Assembly (NCBI GenBank): GCA_964473825.1
Contig: CAYYQL010000050.1
Location: forward strand, 1 to 15,789
Reading direction: 5' to 3'
DNA: 15,789 bases
From: an uncultured archaeon
Lineage (GTDB): Archaea > Asgardarchaeota > Thorarchaeia > Thorarchaeales > Thorarchaeaceae
Part shown: positions 5,260-15,789 of the stretch, one piece after another
How the letters are laid out: each line of letters opens with the position of its first letter
Position numbering within the stretch: position 1 is the first letter of the stretch
Program-made: the position numbers and the translations under genes
The notes under the pieces: model-generated
The model's input: only the letters and a program-made list of their open reading frames with translations
The model's database searches: none
Told to the model about the DNA's origin: nothing

Positions 5260-6279
5260 GTGACTACGCCTCAGATAGGGATTATTGGTATAGGGAACAT
5301 GGGCAAGATCCATGCCAGAGTACTGAACAACGCTAGAGCCCTGGCGGGGGTTGCAGATACCGACTTCGAGAAAGCGAAACAAGTTTCTGAAATCTATCAA
5401 GTACCCGCGTTCAGAGATTTTGAGGTGATGCTTCAAGAGGTGGCCTTGGACGGCGTCATTATAGCAACACCAACCTTTACTCACGCAATCATCGCTGAAA
5501 AGATTGCAGACAAGCATGACTCCGTGAAAGGTATTCTTATCGAAAAGCCACTCGCGTCGAACCTGCAGGATGCTGAGAGGGTTGCGAGCATTCTTAATCG
5601 GAAGAAGATTGAAGCAGTTGTTTCACACTCAGAGATCTACAATCCCGTGGTCGAGAGAGCTTTGAATCTTATTATGAGCGGAGATATCGGAAGACCCCGA
5701 ACTATCGTCCATGACAGGAGAGGATTTGTTCAGCCCTCACGAATTCCGTCACTTGGTGATGTCTTTGAGGATATTGGCGTTCATGACTTCGACATCATGT
5801 CGAGAATAAGTACCGGACCGGGCCGTCTGTTCGCTCAGGGCTGTATTCAAGAGGGAACCTACAATTCGGGAACTGTTCTGATCAAATTCGATAGTGGTAC
5901 GGAACATGTATTCCATCTATCTCGCCAATACGTGGGACGAAAGCGGATCATGGACGTTTCAGGCACAAAAGGAACTCTTGTACTGGATTTATTCGCGCAG
6001 ATAATCAAAGTCCAGGACTTGGACCAAGAACCATCAGCTGATAGTAGAACAATCAAACTGCCTCAAAGAGGTGCCACTATCAAAGTATATGGGGAACCAG
6101 TTCAAGAAGTGATTAACGACTTTCTAAGATGCATCGAGACTGGGTCCAGGCCGCTGGTCGGTCTTGATGACGGCATTGCGGCTTTACGTATCGTTGAGGC
6201 CGCAAGGAAGAGTGCGAGTTCCGGAGAGGCTGTGGGGATCAATATTCAGCCGAGAGCGGAAACATCACCCGCTAAGTAG
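5260..6279 (+). CDS. Gfo/Idh/MocA family NAD(P)-dependent oxidoreductase
   Basis: Rossmann motif IGIIGIGNMG, IATPTFTH, IEKP and DIGVHDFD; TATA-like GTATAAAG at about 5207-5214. Confidence 0.92.
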   Translation: MTTPQIGIIGIGNMGKIHARVLNNARALAGVADTDFEKAKQVSEIYQVPAFRDFEVMLQEVALDGVIIATPTFTHAIIAEKIADKHDSVKGILIEKPLASNLQDAERVASILNRKKIEAVVSHSEIYNPVVERALNLIMSGDIGRPRTIVHDRRGFVQPSRIPSLGDVFEDIGVHDFDIMSRISTGPGRLFAQGCIQEGTYNSGTVLIKFDSGTEHVFHLSRQYVGRKRIMDVSGTKGTLVLDLFAQIIKVQDLDQEPSADSRTIKLPQRGATIKVYGEPVQEVINDFLRCIETGSRPLVGLDDGIAALRIVEAARKSASSGEAVGINIQPRAETSPAK

Positions 6280-7541
6280 GTCTTCTCAGCGGAGGATATC
6301 TCTACCCCTATAGTTGAACCCAGCTTCACATCATCATCTATGATGACAGGCCTATAGCATGGGGTGCGAGCCAATAGACCACCTTTTGGAGCCACAGAGG
6401 TCACAAGCACAGGTCCAGTCCACCCAAGCCACGAGTTAGCCTTCTCTGAGAGAATAGTGCTCACCAAGTGGGATAGTTTCCGACTCCTATTCTTCTTCAC
6501 TGAACTATCAACTTTGTCACCGGACTCTGAAGCCGGGGTTCCCGGCCGATCCCCGTATTTTGATATATTGGTGATCTCAGGCCGCACACTTCTAATCAAA
6601 TCCATCGTGGCGGCGAAGTCGGCATTGGACTCGCCGGGGTGTCCCACGATGATATCTGTGGCAATCGTAGAAGATGGAAACCTCTTACGGACGGTGTGAA
6701 CAATTGACTCCCACTCGGCAACTGAATACTGTCGATTCATGGTATGCAGGACACGATCACTCCCGGACTGTACAGGTAGATGAAAGAACTTGAAGAAATG
6801 TTGCGACTTCATTACTCTCAGCAATGCATCCAATGAATCGGAAACTAGGTTGCAGTTGAACATCCCAAGCCTGAAGCGATGGTCTCCTGCAATCTCATCA
6901 AGCTCAGATAGAAGCTCGACAAGATTCTCACCAGTGTCTGCACCGTAGGCAGCTGCATCTTGTGCTGTAAGTCGTATTTCCTTATAGCCTGATGCCACTG
7001 CTTTGCCTACAACTTCCCTCAGTGAGTGGATAGAATAACTGCGTATAGATTCTCTTGCGAATCTCACTGCGCAATAGCTACAGGCACCCAGACAGCCTTC
7101 ACAGATAGGTACTGTGCAGATCACACTATGAGGGGGGCCTCGGAAGTATCTGAGTTTGGAACCTATATCTGGTTCTAGGTCAATGATTCCGCGTTCGCCC
7201 TTGAGAACTGTCTGCAAAACAGGACCTAGTTTCTCGATCGATTGAGGACCCAGTATTGCCGCATGATCCGAAGCAGCATCGAGCACACGAGGTAGATTGA
7301 TTTTGGGAAGACATCCTGTGATGATAAGAGGAGCACCAAGCTTGTCTAGCTCACCTATGCGATGAATAACCCTATCCTCAGTTGGTTCTTTTACCCCACA
7401 CGTATTCACAATCAAGACATCGGCAGCATCGGGTCCTTGCACCCGTTTTCCTCCAATGAGAGCGAGTCGCCCCACTATCAAATCGGAGTCGGCCATGTTT
7501 AGTGAACAGCCGTATGTTTCAAGATAATAGGTAAACCCCAA
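6246..7541 (-). CDS. mtaB: tRNA t6A37 methylthiotransferase (archaeal/eukaryotic MtaB/CDKAL1 type)
   Basis: UPF0004 cysteines in ETYGCSLN, NTCGVK and TGCLP; radical SAM motif CLGACSYC; HLPVQSGSD and TDIIVGHPGE; C-terminal TRAM-like region. Probable TTG start at 7541, just after the upstream TAG. Confidence 0.85.
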   Translation of the reverse strand: MGFTYYLETYGCSLNMADSDLIVGRLALIGGKRVQGPDAADVLIVNTCGVKEPTEDRVIHRIGELDKLGAPLIITGCLPKINLPRVLDAASDHAAILGPQSIEKLGPVLQTVLKGERGIIDLEPDIGSKLRYFRGPPHSVICTVPICEGCLGACSYCAVRFARESIRSYSIHSLREVVGKAVASGYKEIRLTAQDAAAYGADTGENLVELLSELDEIAGDHRFRLGMFNCNLVSDSLDALLRVMKSQHFFKFFHLPVQSGSDRVLHTMNRQYSVAEWESIVHTVRKRFPSSTIATDIIVGHPGESNADFAATMDLIRSVRPEITNISKYGDRPGTPASESGDKVDSSVKKNRSRKLSHLVSTILSEKANSWLGWTGPVLVTSVAPKGGLLARTPCYRPVIIDDDVKLGSTIGVEISSAEKTYLAGDVSALG

Positions 7542-7545
7542 CAGT

Positions 7546-7830
7546 CTACCACTCTCCGCCTTGAACATGGGGCAGAATTGCTATTTCATCACCGTGCTTG
7601 ACCGGAGTGTCAAGGCCCTCCAGAAGATCCGTGTCATGTCCGTTCAACATGACTATCAGATTACCGCTGATAGTGCCATTCTTGTTCAATAAGATGTCTT
7701 CTAGTCCAAACTTTTTGATTGCTACTGTGATTATGTCCCGCACCTTAGCAGTGGGGTTAGCTTCAAGCGAAACCACCGACTGGCCCATGGCTCTCCTGAT
7801 GGTTCCGAATACCTTCAATCTGACCTTCAA
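7546..7830 (-). CDS. MoaD/ThiS/SAMP ubiquitin-like protein with C-terminal GG-EW
   Basis: Beta-grasp signature MKVRLKVFG...IVMLNGHD...GLDTPVKHGDEIAILPHVQGG; GAGGT SD before the TTG. Confidence 0.9.
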   Translation of the reverse strand: MKVRLKVFGTIRRAMGQSVVSLEANPTAKVRDIITVAIKKFGLEDILLNKNGTISGNLIVMLNGHDTDLLEGLDTPVKHGDEIAILPHVQGGEW

Positions 7831-7847
7831 TTGTTGACCTCTGCGAT

Positions 7848-8222
7848 TCAGGCACTAGTTTTCATTTTCTTCGAGAGCATCTCAGTGACTAGTTCGTCCA
7901 CCAGTGAGGATACTGTGGCTATGTCTTCGGAGGATGCCTGCTCCAAGTGGATGCCAAGCATCAGTATGACTGTGCATTGCATCTCTCTGCAGATGCGCTC
8001 AGCAAGGGGGCTCGAAAGAACATATTCCTTATGACCGGGAACAGATATAGTGCTCACGCTTATGGTCGGCACTCTTCGATATCTGCTCTCCGAAACGGAT
8101 GCAACAGAAACGCCACCAACATGGGCAGTGTCACCCCCATAGACTGTGGTCACTAAGTCCTCTCCGATCCATCTCGCCTCCAGCGTAATCTTCTGGCTTC
8201 GATATTCCCGTTCAAGTTTCAT
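7848..8222 (-). CDS. LpdD-like / proteasome assembly chaperone 4-like protein
   Basis: Motifs IGEDLVTTVYGG..AHVGGV, ST...PGHKE and V..GIHL..AS.EDI match my recollection of the LpdD family. ATG at 8222 has a GAGGT SD; alternative ATG at 8273. Confidence 0.7.
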   Translation of the reverse strand: MKLEREYRSQKITLEARWIGEDLVTTVYGGDTAHVGGVSVASVSESRYRRVPTISVSTISVPGHKEYVLSSPLAERICREMQCTVILMLGIHLEQASSEDIATVSSLVDELVTEMLSKKMKTSA

Positions 8223-8281
8223 TGCTCTGACCTCACAGTGAACATACTGCAAACACACCATCGAGTAACCCATACCGCTAC

Positions 8282-9838
8282 TCAGTCTCTGCTCTGGTCA
8301 CTTTTCTCTCTATGCATCCTCCATGAGAGGGTTAGCGTCTTGGGGTGTGCGGCCTTGTACTCATCTAGAAGGGAAATGGCGGTCGTGTAGGGTGCTTCCA
8401 TCATTCTGTCGGGTTCTTCGTAGGCCTCTCTCGAAATCTTCTTGAGAGCGTCAATGAAATAGTCGAGCTCCTCCTTGGTTTCACTCTCTGTCGGCTCAAT
8501 CATAAGAGCCTCAGGAACTATGAGAGGGAAATATACAGTGGGAGCGTGAATCCCGAAATCGAGGAGACGTTTCACAACTTTCATCGCGGTGATACCGGTG
8601 TCTTCCTTGAGCTTCTCAGCAGAAATCACACATTCATGCATCCTTGGTGCATCTTGGGAGTAGGGAAGAGTGAATCCCTTGATTCTGCTCACATGCCTAG
8701 CAATGTAGTTCGCGTTGAGGACCGCTGCCTCAGATGATCTCTTCAGCCCTTCGCCACCAAGAGCATAGATGTAGGCATATGCTTTGAGGAGGACGCCGAA
8801 GTTTCCATAGAATCCGTGGACTTTCCCAATAGACTTTGGATAGTCATAGTCTAAACCAAAGACTCCATCCTCATTCTTGATGACACGAGGAACTGGAAGG
8901 AATTCTGTAAGTTTGCTTTTTACGCCGACCGGACCAGCTCCAGGACCACCACCACCATGCGGCGTCGAGAATGTTTTGTGAAGGTTCATATGAACCACAT
9001 CAAAGCCCATATCACCGGGACGAACTATACCAAGTATGGCGTTGAGGTTAGCCCCGTCATAGTAGACAAGTCCTCCAGATTCATGGACCAGGTCTGTAAT
9101 CTCCTCAATGTCTTTCTCGAAGACACCGATTGTGTTGGGATTTGTCAGCATCAATCCAGCAGTCCTAGAGCCCACGGCTTCTTTCAACGCATCTATGTCA
9201 ACGAGTCCCTCACTGCTTGATGGTAGTACTACAACATCATAGCCCGCCATTGCCGCTGATGCAGGATTTGTACCGTGCGCAGAATCAGGAATCAGCATCT
9301 CTGTTCGTTGTTCGCACTCACCGGTTACGCACCGATGGTATTCTCGCATGATCATCACGCCCGTATACTCACCTTGGGCACCAGCTGCTGGCTGAAGTGT
9401 CACTGCATCCATGCCGCTTATCTCGGCGAGCCAATGCTCGAGTTGCCAGAGCATTTCGAGAGCGCCTTGGGCAGTCGTCGGATCTTGATCTGGATGAAGA
9501 CCGGCGAATCCATTCAACGATACACCCTCTTCATTGATGAGTGGATTGTATTTCATCGTGCAGCTTCCCAGAGGATACGTGCCAAGACTGACCGCGAAGT
9601 TCATCTGTGATAGTCTCGTGAAGTGCCTCACAACTTGCAATTCAGAAACCTCAGGTAACATCGGTCGCTGTTTTCTGACAAGATTCTCTGGCAGAAAGGA
9701 GTCGAGACTGCCGACTTGTTCTCTTATTTCTCGTTCTAGTGGGGGGAACATGTGGCCGACTCTACCGGTCTTTGTTCGCTGGAATATGAGGGGTTCATTC
9801 CATCTGGCCTGTTGATATACTCTTGATGTGTCCTTCAC
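8282..9838 (-). CDS. gcvPB: Glycine dehydrogenase (decarboxylating) subunit 2, glycine cleavage P protein beta
   Basis: YPLGSCTMKYNP, QPAAGAQGE, SAHGTNPASA, PLP-lysine motif NLHKTFSTPHGGGGPG, IEPTESE; its GTG overlaps the gcvPA TAG. Confidence 0.97.
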   Translation of the reverse strand: MKDTSRVYQQARWNEPLIFQRTKTGRVGHMFPPLEREIREQVGSLDSFLPENLVRKQRPMLPEVSELQVVRHFTRLSQMNFAVSLGTYPLGSCTMKYNPLINEEGVSLNGFAGLHPDQDPTTAQGALEMLWQLEHWLAEISGMDAVTLQPAAGAQGEYTGVMIMREYHRCVTGECEQRTEMLIPDSAHGTNPASAAMAGYDVVVLPSSSEGLVDIDALKEAVGSRTAGLMLTNPNTIGVFEKDIEEITDLVHESGGLVYYDGANLNAILGIVRPGDMGFDVVHMNLHKTFSTPHGGGGPGAGPVGVKSKLTEFLPVPRVIKNEDGVFGLDYDYPKSIGKVHGFYGNFGVLLKAYAYIYALGGEGLKRSSEAAVLNANYIARHVSRIKGFTLPYSQDAPRMHECVISAEKLKEDTGITAMKVVKRLLDFGIHAPTVYFPLIVPEALMIEPTESETKEELDYFIDALKKISREAYEEPDRMMEAPYTTAISLLDEYKAAHPKTLTLSWRMHREKSDQSRD

Positions 9839-11238
9839 TATCTGGCACCCCCCTTACGTACAGCATCACCAAGAACATCGACAAGCTTGTCGATTGATTC
9901 CTTGTTGTGCAATTCGGTCATGCAGAGCAGCATGGATTCTCCGAGCTCAGGGAATGTATCTGTGAGTGTTCGTCCCCCGTGAAGTTCTTCCTCAAGAAGA
10001 TACTCATGCACATCTGCAGCGGAGGCTTCATCAAATTTCACTACAAACTCCTTCCATATGTGCGATCCAAGAGCTGGAGCAGTGACTGATTCAATCATTC
10101 CTAGTTTCTGTGCAGCATACTTTGAATAGTAGGCAATCCTCTCACCAACATCACGAATGCCACTCGCACCAAGTGTGGATAGATAGACTGCCGCAGTCAC
10201 TGCGAGAAGTGCCTGATTTGAACAGATATTGCTTGTTGCCTTTTCACGCCGAATGTGCTGCTCACGAGGGCTCAGGGTGAGAACGTAGCCACGTTCATAC
10301 GGTTCTTTCTCTGTTGTTGTCATTCCCACAAGACGGCCGGGCATCTGATAGACAAGCCGACGGTCCATTCTGCAACCGAATACTCCTAGGAGAGGGCCAC
10401 CATAAGACATTGAGGTACCGAGAGATTGACCTTCGGCCACCACGATGTCCGCGCCATAGTCCCCGGGGGGTCGCAGGATACCAAGGGAGAGGATATCCAC
10501 TCCTGCAACCAATAGGACATCGGATGCATGGACCAAGTCATCAATCTCATCCAAGGAACTTTCAAGAACTCCGAAGTAGTTCGGGTTCTGAATGTATACG
10601 CCCGCCACACTTTCATCAAGTTTTGACTCCAAATCTGAGAGGTCCAACTGTCCCGTGGCCATCTCGTAGTCTACCTGAATGACCTCAATACCTGCGGGTT
10701 CAGCATAGGTTCGGATAACATCCAGATAGCTTGGATTCATCGCCCTTGGCACCAAGAACTTCTGGCTCCCCTTTCTGACGCGGCTGGTCATTAAGACTGC
10801 TTCAGCAAGCGAACTTGCCATGTCATACATACTACTGTTGACGACATCGATCTCGAGAAGTTCAGCCAACAGGCTCTGGTATTCAAACAAGGCCTGAAGC
10901 ATACCCTGACTAATCTCGGGTTGATAGCTCGTGTAGGAAGTCACAAACTCGGAGCGCGAAGCAAGTTTCCTGACAGCGGCAGGAATGTAATGGGGCTCAA
11001 CGCCGGAGCCGAGAAACGCACTTCCGTCATTCATTGGACGGTTCCGTGCCGCCAATTTCTGGAGGCGCCTGAAAACATCAAGCTCACCATGGGGAACAGG
11101 AAGGTCAAGTTTTTTCTTGAGCACGAACTTGGAGGGGATGTTTCTGAACAGGGCATCGATCGAGCTCTCACCTATCGAATCAAGCATCTCTTCTTCTGTG
11201 TCTTTGGTTAGGGGAATATACGAGTGTCTTAGGTCCAT
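9838..11238 (-). CDS. gcvPA: Glycine dehydrogenase (decarboxylating) subunit 1, glycine cleavage P protein alpha
   Basis: SYTSYQPEISQGMLQALFEYQ, NSSMYD and REQHIRREKATSNICSNQAL. Start moved to ATG 11238 (MDLRHSYIP), which has a GGTGA SD. Confidence 0.96.
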   Translation of the reverse strand: MDLRHSYIPLTKDTEEEMLDSIGESSIDALFRNIPSKFVLKKKLDLPVPHGELDVFRRLQKLAARNRPMNDGSAFLGSGVEPHYIPAAVRKLASRSEFVTSYTSYQPEISQGMLQALFEYQSLLAELLEIDVVNSSMYDMASSLAEAVLMTSRVRKGSQKFLVPRAMNPSYLDVIRTYAEPAGIEVIQVDYEMATGQLDLSDLESKLDESVAGVYIQNPNYFGVLESSLDEIDDLVHASDVLLVAGVDILSLGILRPPGDYGADIVVAEGQSLGTSMSYGGPLLGVFGCRMDRRLVYQMPGRLVGMTTTEKEPYERGYVLTLSPREQHIRREKATSNICSNQALLAVTAAVYLSTLGASGIRDVGERIAYYSKYAAQKLGMIESVTAPALGSHIWKEFVVKFDEASAADVHEYLLEEELHGGRTLTDTFPELGESMLLCMTELHNKESIDKLVDVLGDAVRKGGAR

Positions 11239-11318
11239 TGTGAGTGTCACCAGAGTGTCTAGGTCAGACCCCATACAAAAGGACAAATATCCTTTCGTGT
11301 TCAGGTCGGCCAGAATCA

Positions 11319-11326
11319 TTTTTAAA
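11319..11326. promoter_or_regulatory. TATA-like box in the divergent gcvPA/trm112 intergenic region
   Basis: TTTTTAAA on plus and TTTAAAAA on minus; the most TATA-like element between the two divergent starts. Confidence 0.5.
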
Positions 11327-11369
11327 TTGGCACGTATCAAAATCAATCTAGACCATAGGAGGTCTTGGT

Positions 11370-11690
11370 TTGAAACCGTGGCTCATGGACATCCTCGCCT
11401 GCCCCATTCCCGACTGTAGAAGTGAACTTGAGCTCCGGGTATACAGGTCACATATGCTCAAGGGCGTTGACGGAGAGGTTCAAGAGATTGATGATGCACT
11501 CATTGTGTGTCCGAGATGTGGTCGCTGGTATCCTGTGATTGAGGGAATACCATGCATGCTTCCAGACGACCTCAGGAATAGTGGAAAACAGAGAATCGAG
11601 GAAACTAGATTCTTGGAGACGTGGAAGGAAAGGATTCCTGATAGTATTTTGCAGGAGGGGAAGCCCTTTGGACTCACACCCAAAGGCTGA
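11370..11690 (+). CDS. trm112: Trm112-like methyltransferase activator (zinc-binding)
   Basis: MKPWLMDILACPIPDC...LIVCPRCGRWYPVIEGIPCMLP; GGAGGT SD before the TTG. Confidence 0.88.
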   Translation: MKPWLMDILACPIPDCRSELELRVYRSHMLKGVDGEVQEIDDALIVCPRCGRWYPVIEGIPCMLPDDLRNSGKQRIEETRFLETWKERIPDSILQEGKPFGLTPKG

Positions 11691-11718
11691 TATTCCTAAC
11701 AAGACTGGGGATTTCCAA

Positions 11719-11794
11719 AGCCCCGTGGTGTAGCGGTCCAGCATGGCGGGTTTTGGCCTCGCCGACCCAGGTTCAAATCCTGGCGGGGCTACCA
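11719..11794 (+). tRNA. tRNA-Gln(TTG), intronless; CCA encoded
   Basis: Acceptor AGCCCCG/CGGGGCT with the archaeal A1-U72 pair; anticodon arm GCGGG-TTTTGGC-CTCGC; T arm CCAGG-TTCAAAT-CCTGG. Confidence 0.96.
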
Positions 11795-11796
11795 TT

Positions 11797-12657
11797 CTAT
11801 TTTTCCACTTCGGTGATGCTCAATGCATCAGCAGAATCAGGAGTCTGAGCCTTGAACAGACGCTTCACCTTCGATAGAACCAATCTATCACCGTTGACAA
11901 GTATAACGATAGTCACATGTTCAGCAAGCCCTGAAGTAGACAACTTCTTCTCTAGTACAGCCTGAACTTGAAACACACCTGCGGGATTATCCATGGCTAC
12001 GGTGATTCGGAGGGGGGCTTCTGTGCCCTTCTCAAGAATGACGTCCTCAATTGCAAGTGCACTCACAGAATGGATGTCGACCTTGCCCTTTTGATAAGGG
12101 ATGACAGTTCGGCCCTTGGTCATATCGCATCCATCTCCAATCTTCGTGGCCCCTGCCTCGAAAGTCAGACACTGGGTATCATCGTCGTGGGAGTAGATTC
12201 CATGCAGAGTGAAAGACAGAATATCTGTCGCCTTTGCAGGGTCATCGTATATCTCCTCTAGTTTTGACTCCAGAACAGGTCGTGCTAGCTGGAGGGTTGC
12301 CTGTGCATGTTCATTGCGGTGTACTACCATTCCTATATCGTGCAGATACGTCGCGGCGAGCACAATCAGTCTTGCATCATCCATGTCACCTATGCCTTCA
12401 GCAACAACATTCGGCAGGAAGGTCTGAGTCAAGATATCAAATGCTTTCAGTGCATTCCACGTGGCAACTTCGGCATGCGTTCTTCCGTGATCGGTATAGC
12501 CTAGTCGGGATACAGCCATTCGGTTAGCAGTTCGAAGATAAGACTGCACTTTCGGGGAACTGCTCAGATAGCGATACATATCCAGAGATTTCGTCCCCTG
12601 CTCTAGGAGATCCTCAACTTCAATGTCTTCTCTTACGAAACTCCTCGTACTATTCAT
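11797..12657 (-). CDS. HD-superfamily metal-dependent phosphohydrolase (COG3294-like)
   Basis: RLGYTDHGRTH, YLHDIG, SHD, GDGCDMTKGR, DIHSVSA and NPAGVFQV. ATG 12657 has a GGTG SD; alternative GTG at 12693. Confidence 0.88.
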   Translation of the reverse strand: MNSTRSFVREDIEVEDLLEQGTKSLDMYRYLSSSPKVQSYLRTANRMAVSRLGYTDHGRTHAEVATWNALKAFDILTQTFLPNVVAEGIGDMDDARLIVLAATYLHDIGMVVHRNEHAQATLQLARPVLESKLEEIYDDPAKATDILSFTLHGIYSHDDDTQCLTFEAGATKIGDGCDMTKGRTVIPYQKGKVDIHSVSALAIEDVILEKGTEAPLRITVAMDNPAGVFQVQAVLEKKLSTSGLAEHVTIVILVNGDRLVLSKVKRLFKAQTPDSADALSITEVEK

Positions 12658-12727
12658 GTCTAACACCAGAGGGACTGAGAACCTCGTTGTCACTAGAGAT
12701 AAGCATTGCTGCGTGGCAACAGCGGTC

Positions 12728-15679
12728 CTAGAACTCTCCTGCTTCCTCCTCTAGTGAGAGAAGAATCCTATCTGTGGTAGAGATTGCCTGTTTGATGGTC
12801 TTGAGATAGTCCTGACGGGACCTCTCGAATGCCGCCCGACTTATTTTCTGCTTCTTTTTCCGGAGAAGAAGCTGGCGAAGACCAGCTTTGGCACCTGCAA
12901 TTCGTTCCTCTTGGAGCTCCAGCTGTGAAACAATGTCGCGATACTTTGAGCCTTCAGAAATCATCTCTTGCTTAAGGCCTGCAAGCTCGCTATCTACCTC
13001 GTCCAGTTGTGATTTGATGTCACGCTCTCGAATCATGAATTCTTTTTTGGTCACCTTTCCTCGTTTTCTGGCAGACTCAAGTTTCTCAAGGTCGAGACCA
13101 AGTGTTGTCTTCCGAGAGTAGCTGGACGCGAAATCACGTAGGAGCTCAGGTGCAGCACCGACCTGCCGGCTGGGACTTGTCATCTCATCTTCTCCCGCAA
13201 CGACTTCTCCGACTGTACGGCGTTTCGCACCTCTGTAAGCAACATAGATCAGCGCAACAACGCCGAAGATGAAACCGAATGCAGCCGGTCGAGCTAGCGA
13301 TCCAGGCGTTGTCATATATGCAATAGATACCTCAGGAGGGTTGAACCGAGTCGAATTGTAGACGGTATATCTAAGAGTTGAATGCGACGCACCACGAAGT
13401 AGTCTATAATCACCAGATGCCTCAGTCACTCCAACAGAAAGGGGCAGAACAATGTCAATTGTATGGCTTTTGACATTGATCTCACTAAGTGTGGTCATGG
13501 GAAATTCGACGATACTGCCTGCACTACCGGACTCCTGGTAGGTTGGGAGATGAATGGTGTAGTGAACATTGAATGTGTATTTGTATCCTGGCCAGAACCC
13601 TTGTTCTCCGAACCGGTCCCTCTGTAGGTTTATTTTTTGGTCCAGTGTGGCATTCCAGTCCCAAGATTTCGGCTGCGAATCTGCGAGGATGCCTACTCTA
13701 TCAAATATCTCCACATCTGACATATAGGCGGGGAAGTTCATCGTTATGCCCAGCTCTCTTGCAGGCCCGATATTCTCCAGACTGATTGTCTCTTCGTAAT
13801 GCAACCAGCCCCAGGGATCTAGGGTTATCCGCGTCGTTCGGGTTGCGACAAGATAAGGTGTGAATGACCTGATGGTTATGGTGAAGGGTTCTACTGTCAT
13901 GGGGGCGATGTTCTGTGTGCTTCCTTCAATATTCTCACTATCGAGAGAATCACCACTTCTGAAGCCGAAGGAGAATGAGAGAGACTGGATCACATAGGGG
14001 ACCACTGGATACTTCAGATAAGATATATCAAACAGGTTATTCTCAAAACTCTTCTCCACATGAAGTGAGTGGAAATAGGTGACCACTGTGAATGTATAAC
14101 TCTCTCCAACATCGACGGGTTCAAAGAAGTATACACGCCAGTGCATCATTCTGCTGGTATCAGCAAGCCGCTTCACTTCCAGTTGGTGGTTTGCGCTGTC
14201 TTCGGCCTCGATGGAGAGATAGTTCGCTCTGAATTGGAGAGGCATGTAGAGCTCTAATGCACCGACAGGAACGGATCTTGTGTTCTGTACTGTGAACTTA
14301 TCAGCGGTCTTGTCTGTATGATACATCATTGTTGTGAATGTACGGGTCACACTCAATCTCATGCCGGCCAGCGGGACGACAGGGTTTCCCACGGTGATAT
14401 TGATCATCGTGACACTTGTCAGGTTTGATGGATCTGTTGCATTGAAATAGATTGTTTTCGGGCCATCGTCGAAATCAGAGACATCTACTTCTGTCGTCCA
14501 AAAGCCAGTCTTGAAGCTGTATCTGAGGTCTGTCCAGTTTGTGTCTTCAAAGCGATATCCAGCAGTCCGAATGATTGACTTGTCAGTGGCCTTCAGCTGG
14601 ATGAACAGTGTCCATTCAACAATCGCATCGGCAGTTGGTGATATCACTTCCAGTTGAGGCGCATCATTTGGTTCTATAACCATCATCAGCGGGTCTGACC
14701 AGTCAGTATGCCGAACTGGCAACTCGTCGAAATCGTCACTGGGGCCGGCCAGCAGAACAAATGGATAGACAACATCAGTTCCATTGAGTAGCGCTATGTC
14801 CTCAGTATCTGTGCTGTTCATCCGAATGTGATACTCCAGCTGGGTGGTGGACCCACTATCGGTACCATTGGCGGAGATGATTCGACTTTGGTTTGAATAA
14901 GGTGCATGTCTTAGTGTACTGATTCCATGTCGATAGCTGTATGAAATGGCGCTGGACTCAGCAGGATTCCTGAAGTTGCTATCAATTCTGGTCAATGTGA
15001 TCACATACTCCAAGTCCTCACCGTAGAGAGGGTGATCGGGAGTTGTGTAACCCTCCTCAGCAGGTATAACGAAGTGCCTAGTCTCGCCGATTCTCATGCC
15101 ATATATCTGCTCTTTGTATGCTTCGAGAAGCCCCTCATTCTGAATCTCTGTAACGGAGTCATTACCGGGAACATATCCTTCCTGTTCAATAGTTCCGTTT
15201 CTGAAAGACAGTACATAATGGACTGTAACCGAATCGGTCGGTTGGACGCGTTGCACCGGTTCGTATGCACCAGCCGGTGAGGATCCGATGACGACATCGC
15301 TGTTGTTCAGACCATCCAACGTATAGGTTTCATTATCTTCTTTCCAGCTTAGACCAATCCATCCAGTTGTCTGTGCCTTTAGCCCAACATACATGACAGT
15401 GGAGTTATGTTCGAGGTAGACGGTGATACCAGTGGCCGGATCAGTGTAGTTGAATGCGTATTCATATGGATCAATAATGCCATCTGCAAGCCCATAATGC
15501 TTGTCAGTGTAGGGAATAGATAGGTTGCATACCGCCTGAGCAATTTTGTTGTCAGACCCATATGCGTTCACATCTGTGGTCTCCAGACTGTTGGAGTCAG
15601 ATAGGCTCACCAAAGCACTGCTCGCAGCGAGAAGCACCAAGAGAGCGATTGTCGTAATCCGTCTATTCAGATGTTTCAA
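12728..15679 (-). CDS. Type I membrane protein: signal peptide, DOMON/CBM9-like domain with inserted FKBP domain, Ig-like domain, ribophorin I (Ost1)-like lumenal region, TM helix, cytoplasmic helical bundle
   Basis: Signal peptide aa 1-25; DOMON-like GWIGLSW...NSDVVIG; FKBP VTVHY...GMRIGETRHFVIPAEEGY...HPLYGEDLEY; ribophorin I-like EPFTITIRSFTPYLVATRTTRITLDPWGWLHYEETISLENIG, IFDRVG, GYKYTFNVHY and IVLP; TM aa ~795-815 followed by RGAKRR; GGTGAT SD before the TTG. Confidence 0.8.
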   Translation of the reverse strand: MKHLNRRITTIALLVLLAASSALVSLSDSNSLETTDVNAYGSDNKIAQAVCNLSIPYTDKHYGLADGIIDPYEYAFNYTDPATGITVYLEHNSTVMYVGLKAQTTGWIGLSWKEDNETYTLDGLNNSDVVIGSSPAGAYEPVQRVQPTDSVTVHYVLSFRNGTIEQEGYVPGNDSVTEIQNEGLLEAYKEQIYGMRIGETRHFVIPAEEGYTTPDHPLYGEDLEYVITLTRIDSNFRNPAESSAISYSYRHGISTLRHAPYSNQSRIISANGTDSGSTTQLEYHIRMNSTDTEDIALLNGTDVVYPFVLLAGPSDDFDELPVRHTDWSDPLMMVIEPNDAPQLEVISPTADAIVEWTLFIQLKATDKSIIRTAGYRFEDTNWTDLRYSFKTGFWTTEVDVSDFDDGPKTIYFNATDPSNLTSVTMINITVGNPVVPLAGMRLSVTRTFTTMMYHTDKTADKFTVQNTRSVPVGALELYMPLQFRANYLSIEAEDSANHQLEVKRLADTSRMMHWRVYFFEPVDVGESYTFTVVTYFHSLHVEKSFENNLFDISYLKYPVVPYVIQSLSFSFGFRSGDSLDSENIEGSTQNIAPMTVEPFTITIRSFTPYLVATRTTRITLDPWGWLHYEETISLENIGPARELGITMNFPAYMSDVEIFDRVGILADSQPKSWDWNATLDQKINLQRDRFGEQGFWPGYKYTFNVHYTIHLPTYQESGSAGSIVEFPMTTLSEINVKSHTIDIVLPLSVGVTEASGDYRLLRGASHSTLRYTVYNSTRFNPPEVSIAYMTTPGSLARPAAFGFIFGVVALIYVAYRGAKRRTVGEVVAGEDEMTSPSRQVGAAPELLRDFASSYSRKTTLGLDLEKLESARKRGKVTKKEFMIRERDIKSQLDEVDSELAGLKQEMISEGSKYRDIVSQLELQEERIAGAKAGLRQLLLRKKKQKISRAAFERSRQDYLKTIKQAISTTDRILLSLEEEAGEF

Positions 15680-15789
15680 ATCATATCACCGCAGACTCGA
15701 TGTACGCCTAGTCAGTAAACGCAATCTTGACTAGACAGCAATCGATGCGGCTCAGATTCGGGTCAATTATTATAGGTTTCGGAAAGATA

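Follow-up and report, generated by a model that had tools for sequence, protein, structure and literature searches.

The window analysed here comprises 15,789 nucleotides (nt), positions 1 to 15,789 of contig CAYYQL010000050.1, from an uncultured archaeon of the Thorarchaeaceae (assembly GCA_964473825.1), and its minus strand carries, at 12728-15679, a gene for an Ost1/ribophorin I protein of 983 amino acids (aa). Ribophorin I (OST1) is a helper subunit of the secretion and N-glycosylation machine common to Asgard archaea and eukaryotes. It counts as a eukaryotic signature protein of Asgard archaea, and what it does at the molecular level is ill-defined in eukaryotes too. From the N to the C terminus the protein consists of a signal peptide, a DOMON-like sandwich split by an FKBP domain, an Ig domain, two ribophorin sandwiches, a transmembrane helix and a four-helix bundle. 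The DOMON-FKBP-Ig module in front of Ost1, about 400 aa long, is specific to the order Thorarchaeales. We consider it rather probable that the module makes this Ost1 a built-in co-translocational folding helper at the ribosome-SecY-AglB site. Ost1 as such is already well known in Asgard archaea (PMC10307638, PMC11417166). As to its combination with a DOMON-FKBP-Ig module, of which a first-pass annotation made from the sequence alone knew no description, we found no paper on it in full-text searches of openly accessible articles. The parts of the gene are as follows.

12728..15679, minus strand: whole gene, Ost1/ribophorin I with N-terminal DOMON-FKBP-Ig module, 983 aa; TTG start, stop codon at 12728-12730
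15593..15679, minus strand: signal peptide or N-terminal hydrophobic segment, aa 1-29; basic n-region, h-region at aa 8-26 (hydropathy)
15254..15526, minus strand: N-terminal half of the DOMON/CBM9-fold sandwich, aa 52-142 (alignment, structural matches)
14981..15253, minus strand: FKBP domain inserted in the sandwich, aa 143-233 (Pfam FKBP_C, structural matches)
14669..14980, minus strand: C-terminal half of the DOMON/CBM9-fold sandwich, aa 234-337 (structural matches that cross the insert)
14384..14668, minus strand: Ig-like domain of the Big_7 type, aa 338-432 (Pfam, structural matches)
13856..14383, minus strand: ribophorin I extracytoplasmic beta-sandwich domain 1, aa 433-608 (model, Foldseek, profile search)
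13304..13855, minus strand: ribophorin I extracytoplasmic beta-sandwich domain 2, aa 609-792 (DPWGW and DRVG motifs)
13211..13303, minus strand: single transmembrane helix, aa 793-823, followed by RGAKRR, a positive-inside signal (hydropathy, model)
12731..13153, minus strand: cytosolic four-helix bundle, aa 843-983 (phmmer and VIA against PDB entry 8WHN)

The gene is a single frame of 983 codons with no internal stop, and the position of its TTG start is supported because the orthologs begin with Met in the same alignment column. Hydropathy revealed two hydrophobic segments in the whole protein (aa 6-29 and 793-818). A signal-peptide-like feature is likewise present at the N terminus of the orthologs, and the signal peptide of OST1 from 'Candidatus Prometheoarchaeum syntrophicum' MK-D1 is functional (PMC11417166). 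As there are only two hydrophobic segments, aa 30-792 should be extracellular and aa 823-983 cytoplasmic. The distribution of N-x-S/T sequons agrees with that: each of the 20 aligned orthologs has 13-19 of them, at about 17 conserved positions, and the tail has none. Most of the conserved N-glycosylation sequons are located in the N-terminal module. Thus far the first-pass annotation proved right, as it had described an uninterrupted 983-aa open reading frame with a signal peptide and one transmembrane helix, and had given the domains in the correct order with boundaries close to those found here (DOMON ~52-337, FKBP ~143-233, Ig 338-432, ribophorin 433-792).

The assignment to Ost1 is carried by the C-terminal part of the protein. 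An AlphaFold model of aa 432-983 was made from 79 sequences (predicted local distance difference test, pLDDT, 91.5), and its best eight Foldseek matches were all human or yeast RPN1/Ost1 chains (E 1e-29 to 5e-19), so that the comparison which had been proposed for the presumed ribophorin I-like region came out in its favour. The matched chains bear the name 'Dolichyl-diphosphooligosaccharide--protein glycosyltransferase subunit 1', an identity that we confirmed by sequence. Alignment to RPN1/Ost1 with VIA-align gave Z 27.9-32.4 over 365-519 aligned residues at 14-16% identity, whereas Z fell to ~13 for the class that followed, which comprises the N-terminal sandwiches of M1 aminopeptidases and of LTA4 hydrolase. 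A profile of the Thorarchaeal family and canonical Ost1 proteins, which may contain eukaryotic rows, matched human oligosaccharyltransferase (OST) subunit 1 with E 3.7e-50 and the yeast subunit with E 5.4e-24. In a profile search of 1.8 billion representatives, aa 442-982 were tied to many proteins of 560-620 aa, and Pfam identified the ones examined as Ribophorin_I proteins (E 1e-10 to 7e-26). The same Pfam family was matched in 8/20 orthologs (3 above the 25-bit cut-off), with matches covering profile positions 14-232 (aa ~454-643) and 259-436 (aa ~645-830). D660 is invariant in all 79 Ost1 sequences of alignment A3.

The tail had at first been described as a basic coiled coil; instead, it is a bundle of four helices, and its homologue in MK-D1 OST1 is the domain that binds ribosomes. 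Plain phmmer matched aa 845-974 to PDB 8WHN (E 2e-7), which is the cytoplasmic four-helix bundle of MK-D1 OST1 (PMC11417166), and the tail model superimposed on this structure over 141/142 residues (VIA; Z 18.4, root-mean-square deviation (rmsd) 1.7 Å, 24% identity). The MK-D1 domain has the topology of the corresponding domain of human RPN1, and ribosomes were pulled down with it in vitro (PMC11417166). In the Thorarchaeal family the tail (aa 843-983) is the most conserved region of the protein, with 73% mean pairwise identity and an invariant helix (AKAGLRQLLLRKKKQ; AKAGLRQLL-R-KKQ). The C-terminal 550 aa of the protein hold the full RPN1 body plan, composed of two sandwiches, one transmembrane helix and a cytosolic bundle.

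The N-terminal module was modelled separately (AlphaFold, aa 40-440, 20 sequences; pLDDT 82, predicted TM-score 0.78), and an exhaustive search of the model by structure separated three units. Matches to the sandwich (aa ~52-337) span model residues 12-298 and bridge the FKBP insert, in agreement with the initial placement of FKBP within a DOMON/CBM9-like region. The best of them was the heme-b gamma subunit of ethylbenzene dehydrogenase (2ivf_C, Z 14.0, 168 aligned residues), and others were Nxr gamma (7b04_C, Z 12.8), the CBM9 of Thermotoga xylanase (1i82_A, Z 12.6), the cytochrome domain of cellobiose dehydrogenase (CDH; 1d7c, Z 11.7) and the DOMON domain of dopamine beta-hydroxylase (4zel, Z 11.1). 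Within the ESM Atlas, a cluster of proteins that Pfam assigns to DOMON matched it as well (rmsd 2.3 Å, TM-score 0.50). A Pfam scan of the two halves (aa 40-145 and aa 233-340) gave zero family matches even at E<=10; therefore, 'DOMON-like' is a statement on the fold only. The N-terminal half shows the highest conservation within the ectodomain (63% mean pairwise identity), with an invariant IPY-D-HYG-ADGIIDP-EY motif. Across the sandwich W107, W112, W327, His61 and a cluster of Asp and Glu residues are invariant, and His91 and His258 are nearly so. No invariant Met was found in the sandwich in the ortholog alignment. In heme-binding domains of the EB_dh and CDH types a Met serves as axial ligand, and the lack of an invariant Met in the alignment leans away from a Met-ligated heme, short of settling the matter.

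The inserted FKBP is of the short type, devoid of the insert-in-flap (IF) domain. Pfam FKBP_C (PF00254) matched aa 144-228 with E 1.3e-8 and 35.5 bits against a cut-off of 21.1, and was found in 19/20 orthologs. By structure, model residues 101-197 matched SlyD (Z 12.5), FKBP2 (Z 12.0, rmsd 2.0 Å), SlpA (Z 11.9) and FKBP11 (9ygy_A, Z 10.9). Of the segment-wise Pfam assignments that the first-pass annotation had called for, that of FKBP_C was thus obtained, and those of Ribophorin_I and DOMON/CBM9 were not, for this protein itself. The Ig-like domain matched Big_7 (PF17957) with E 0.0014 and 19.7 bits, under the 24.1 cut-off, in this protein, and Big_7 was matched in 12/20 orthologs (best E 1.9e-8); its fold matches (model residues 299-394) had Z 11-13.5. 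Ig repeats of this kind are also present, in repeats, in giant archaeal surface proteins. A shape search of the ESM Atlas yielded zero other clusters with a DOMON-FKBP nested in this way, and a feature search of the Atlas with aa 40-340 gave zero usable matches. The mean pairwise identity of the N-terminal half of the sandwich (63%) and of FKBP (56%) exceeds that of the ribophorin domains (41-46%), which points to a stronger constraint on the module than on the ribophorin domains.

The fusion is widespread in its lineage. Among 5.8 billion proteins searched, full-length relatives of 930-1010 aa (45-92% identity) make up more than 120 clusters; nearly all of those with a name bear the label Thorarchaeota, and their annotation reads 'FKBP-type peptidyl-prolyl cis-trans isomerase', 'Ig-like domain-containing protein' or 'hypothetical'. 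When we surveyed 301 sampled genomes of the phylum with the DOMON-FKBP part (aa 50-340), the module was found inside frames of ~985-1000 aa in 73/76 genomes of the protein's own family. The single genome of a sister family of the same order has it too, which brings the count for the order to 74/77. The full module was absent from the ~224 genomes of other families, where FKBP-only or short partial matches were obtained. Logan contigs at 76-86x depth span the whole gene and every domain junction with zero differences, so that both the read-coverage check and the genome survey upheld the fusion as genuine, as the first-pass annotation had supposed. The DNA runs matching the gene are microbial-mat metagenomes of one study and probably represent the source sample, so they do not count as independent evidence; therefore, the real argument against misassembly is phylogenetic conservation. 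No RNA runs carrying the gene were listed among the sequencing runs.

Stand-alone paralogues of the module occur in a few Thorarchaeal genomes (P0127, P0131 and P0132, and those encoded at G179:C23:20722-21597 and G299:C125:6303-7157). They have a signal peptide, DOMON-FKBP, the Ig domain, a second Ig domain and a C-terminal membrane anchor, and no ribophorin part. None was found in the genome studied here, and a search for shorter proteins with the module gave only contig-end fragments labelled Thorarchaeota. In a tree of the module the stand-alone paralogues form one clade (support 91/95) within an unresolved polytomy of fused sequences; the tree is rooted at the midpoint and has a long P0124 branch, so it gives no firm direction. 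The clade fits a duplication out of the fused gene. Many tandem Ig-like repeats resembling the second Ig domain of P0127 were observed in very long frames on contigs C47, C5, C41, C1, C32, C16 and others of the genome. C47 alone had ~30 repeat matches, and these frames probably encode giant surface proteins.

In the genome (3.27 Mb, 95.7% complete), a canonical Asgard Ost1 used as the query (P0139; Pfam Ribophorin_I E 6e-17) matched this gene only (E 4e-36). The 983-aa protein is the only Ost1 of the genome rather than an extra paralogue. A search of the genome with PF04597 gave no match, and neither did it in the control genomes, hence it is uninformative. The genome has one STT3/AglB, in a 939-aa frame (C2:92479-93717, L001), and an OST3_OST6-like match of 39.5 bits lies ~4 kb from AglB (C2:97625-97948, L010), with one TGA reported inside the match.

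The surroundings of the gene also connect it with N-glycosylation. Upstream of the Ost1 gene 110 nt remain in the window, all of them intergenic:

15680..15789, no strand: first half of the ~208-nt divergent intergenic region shared with an AglH/Alg7-type glycosyltransferase family 4 (GT4) gene (contig overlap, colinearity with the same-genus genome G233)

The GT4 gene of this genome is on the adjoining contig (C33:109-1134). The end of the window's contig, C50, and the start of C33 have an exact 10-nt overlap, both are colinear with the intergenic region of G233, and a Logan contig extends 6.5 kb past the window end. A divergent upstream gene was found in six other genomes, namely G233, four genomes of other genera and the sister-family genome, at a distance of 209 nt in G233 and ~170-210 nt elsewhere (from blast and reading-frame coordinates). 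In G233 and G124 it is Glycos_transf_4 by Pfam (E 5.5e-25 and 1.8e-29), and in the remaining genomes it was identified by tblastn similarity or by its reading frame. Glycos_transf_4 is the MraY/WecA/AglH/Alg7 family, whose members make the first lipid-linked sugar. The divergent pair of Ost1 and AglH genes is conserved across the order, and therefore ties the Ost1 gene to N-glycosylation independently of homology.

How the proposed folding helper would work can be outlined from the parts of the protein. The cytosolic bundle would dock the translating ribosome, as do RPN1 and MK-D1 OST1, and the ribophorin domains would be placed beside SecYEG and AglB. The module would then hold the peptide-binding pocket of FKBP and a putative ligand-binding sandwich over the site at which nascent chains emerge and receive their glycans. 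Its activity would likely be that of a holdase or consist in proline-directed binding; catalytic isomerization is possible but would be weak or lacking in the main family. The whole would be a one-chain counterpart of an arrangement found at the human OST-A, which adjoins FKBP11, a lumenal FKBP with one transmembrane helix and a basic ribosome-binding C-terminus (PMC12804085; 9YGY).

Several observations weigh against this reading. The structures used for the Thorarchaeal protein are all predicted. Pfam Ribophorin_I (PF04597) did not match the whole protein, nor aa 436-800 when scanned alone at E<=10, and a Thorarchaeal-only full-length profile searched against PDB sequences reached 8WHN and FKBPs, and not RPN1; the link to RPN1 is made by structure and by intermediate sequences. 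A predicted complex of the module with the ribophorin ectodomain (aa 432-796) scored 0.00 with controls not run, and says nothing either way on docking. A structure of human FKBP11 from 2025 has the pocket buried under CCDC134, and an adaptor role is favoured there over that of an isomerase (PMC12804085). The same could hold here, and the pocket of the Thorarchaeal FKBP itself gives reason for caution. We mapped it through a HMMER alignment to FKBP2, with counts over 20 orthologs and with residues beyond aa 217 aligned by hand, taking the FKBP12 pocket positions to be Y26, F36, D37, V55, I56, W59, Y82, H87 and F99. The retained positions are as follows.

FKBP12 Y26: Y155, kept in 20/20 orthologs
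FKBP12 I56: L185, kept in 20/20 orthologs
FKBP12 W59: Y188, kept in 20/20 orthologs
FKBP12 Y82: Y211, kept in 20/20 orthologs
FKBP12 H87: H216, kept in 16/20 orthologs
FKBP12 F99: Y225, kept in 19/20 orthologs

The F36/D37 dyad, important for FKBP12 catalysis, is replaced by E165/Q166/E167 in an ambiguous register, and with the same ambiguity the dyad positions across the orthologs hold I or L (17/20), Q or E, and E or D. In addition, a sequon, N161-G-T, is invariant (20/20 orthologs) in the loop just before the dyad. Judged by this alignment, the main-family FKBP appears to have its catalytic dyad changed and its aromatic pocket retained, and its prolyl isomerase activity is uncertain because the dyad is not kept. 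The best sequence match of the domain, E. coli SlpA, is likewise without the FD dyad. The ortholog from the sister-family genome (L013:1960-5016, minus strand, genome G112; P0124 lineage; 41% identity in the module) retains IFDTS and every other canonical pocket residue, and its VIEGF helix is preceded by a longer loop; it is a useful comparator for the 'ancestral state'. As its FKBP is fully canonical, the inserted domain began as a canonical FKBP.

The same features can be read in other ways. If the pocket and the sandwich bound a fixed partner (such as a translocon or OST subunit, an S-layer or envelope component, or the module's own glycans) rather than nascent clients, Ost1 would carry a non-catalytic adaptor or scaffold module. 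This we rate as rather unlikely, and it is kept in consideration mainly because of FKBP11, where CCDC134 occupies the pocket. The loss of the FD dyad in the main family, the conserved sequon adjoining the pocket and the surface-protein kind of the Ig domain would suit an adaptor, and the existence of stand-alone membrane-anchored modules means that the module can work away from Ost1. However, the other pocket residues are invariant and the sister lineage is fully canonical, which fits substrate binding at least equally well, and no candidate partner was identified. The most complete form of the folding-helper reading, in which the Ost1 of Thorarchaeales is a hard-wired co-translocational folding station whose FKBP and glycan- or ligand-binding DOMON domain both act on nascent chains, is possible, though on the whole we doubt it.

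A role of the sandwich in lectin-type quality control, such that it binds N-glycans or the lipid-linked donor and, together with FKBP, retains or triages misfolded glycoproteins, seems improbable to us. It would agree with the fold common with CBM9 (Z 12.6), with the invariant W107, W112 and W327 and the acidic cluster, with the lack of an invariant Met, which makes a Met-ligated heme less likely, and with the linkage to the glycan-initiating GT4 gene. However, heme-binding DOMON/EB_dh folds match at least as well (Z 14.0, 12.8 and 11.7), there is no sequence match to the CBM or DOMON models of Pfam, and the cell surface offers neither a retention compartment nor a degradation route like that associated with the endoplasmic reticulum (ER). 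Malectin and calnexin did not appear in the Pfam, PDB sequence or fold searches, by which a relationship is not excluded. The term 'lectin-like' in the first-pass annotation would accordingly denote the fold that heme-binding and sugar-binding domains have in common, and 'quality control' may be taken as an analogy. That the best fold matches are heme-b subunits, and that His61 is invariant with His91 and His258 nearly so, could also suggest that the domain binds heme b and has an extracytoplasmic redox role unrelated to glycosylation. Such a role is very improbable, as EB_dh and CDH types use a Met ligand that is not conserved here, the conserved neighbourhood holds no redox partner, and a fusion to Ost1 and FKBP offers no redox rationale. 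Finally, the lack of a direct Ribophorin_I match in this protein might be taken to mean that assembly had created a chimera, or that the product is some generic beta-sandwich protein of the surface, and not Ost1. The chance of that is close to nil: a misjoin is ruled out by the full-length architecture in 74/77 genomes of the order and by contigs across all junctions, and a generic S-layer or aminopeptidase sandwich by Z 28-32 for RPN1/Ost1 vs ~13, with the tail matching 8WHN besides. Against these alternatives, the folding-helper reading remains the one that we prefer.

On its other side, the Ost1 gene lies in a stretch of conserved gene order that includes a 298-aa protein, a Trm112-like gene, tRNA-Gln and gcvPA/PB. 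The gene of the 298-aa protein (11797-12693, minus strand; no Pfam match, HD-like 'YLHDIGMVVHR' motif) is 35 nt downstream of the Ost1 gene, is found at the corresponding place in G233, G124 and the sister-family G112, and may be co-transcribed with Ost1. Further along, 11370-11690 (plus strand) encodes a 106-aa zinc-ribbon protein (CPxxxC...CPRCG), syntenic in several genera, whose G233 ortholog is Pfam Trm112p (E 2.3e-8), and ARAGORN placed a tRNA-Gln(TTG) at 11719-11794 (plus strand). A 115-aa open reading frame overlapping this tRNA (11448-11795, minus strand) starts with the translated tRNA-like MVAPPGFEPGS... and is almost certainly spurious. A co-oriented run on the minus strand (6246-11346) includes the split glycine-cleavage P protein (gcvPA 9838-11346, gcvPB 8282-9838), a PAC_bac proteasome-assembly-chaperone-like gene (7848-8273) and a radical SAM methylthiotransferase of the MiaB/MtaB type (6246-7568).

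A fusion that is order-wide, with a module more conserved than the ribophorin domains, suggests that Ost1 serves as a platform for nascent-chain handling at the translocon exit, and through the parallel with FKBP11, which was found in 2025 to lie next to OST-A, this can be put to the test with recombinant domains. The fusion is also a clean lineage marker for Thorarchaeales. As the protein is annotated as an FKBP isomerase or 'hypothetical', Thorarchaeal genomes can appear to be without Ost1. If the folding-station reading were true, the protein would be a single-chain archaeal counterpart, and possibly, in principle, a forerunner, of the eukaryotic systems of FKBP11 and of malectin with ribophorin I, and the coupling of folding helpers to OST would have arisen outside and before the ER.

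Compared with known Ost1 proteins, the Thorarchaeal protein stands out by its N-terminal module. MK-D1 OST1 (607 aa) has, like it, a signal peptide, two ribophorin sandwiches, one transmembrane helix and a cytosolic bundle, and the canonical Asgard Ost1 proteins (560-620 aa) align with aa 442-982 at ~20-24% identity, the Thorarchaeal protein having an extra ~400 aa after the signal peptide. Human RPN1 (OST-A/B; 6S7O, 8B6L) and yeast Ost1 (6EZN, 6C26) have the same fold over the whole body; the ribosome-contacting cytosolic bundle of RPN1 is present in the Thorarchaeal tail, whereas yeast Ost1 is without it, and the eukaryotic proteins lack the N-terminal FKBP, DOMON and Ig module. The malectin-ribophorin I association in the animal ER likewise brings a carbohydrate-binding sandwich and ribophorin I together on glycoprotein clients; in the Thorarchaeal protein, however, the link is covalent, malectin did not appear among the matches of the Pfam, PDB sequence and fold searches, and sugar binding is putative. 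The eukaryotic partners of OST subcomplex III have been reported only in Heimdallarchaeia (PMC10307638). SlyD and SlpA, and the archaeal FKBP17 and FKBP26, have the same FKBP fold, but they are cytosolic and have an IF domain inserted in FKBP, whereas the Thorarchaeal FKBP is itself the inserted guest, extracytoplasmic and without IF. The first-pass annotation had compared it with the separate lumenal FKBPs of the ER. That analogy can be kept, but the translocon-bound FKBP11 is closer than the free lumenal ones, and we regard human FKBP11 at the OST-A translocon as the closest functional analogue. Both would combine an exoplasmic FKBP, a single transmembrane tether and a cytosolic ribosome-binding element beside OST. 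FKBP11, however, is a separate protein of 201 aa that is recruited dynamically and holds CCDC134 in its pocket, whereas the Thorarchaeal FKBP has no known partner of that kind, is covalently joined to Ost1 and lies inside a second domain of the same chain.

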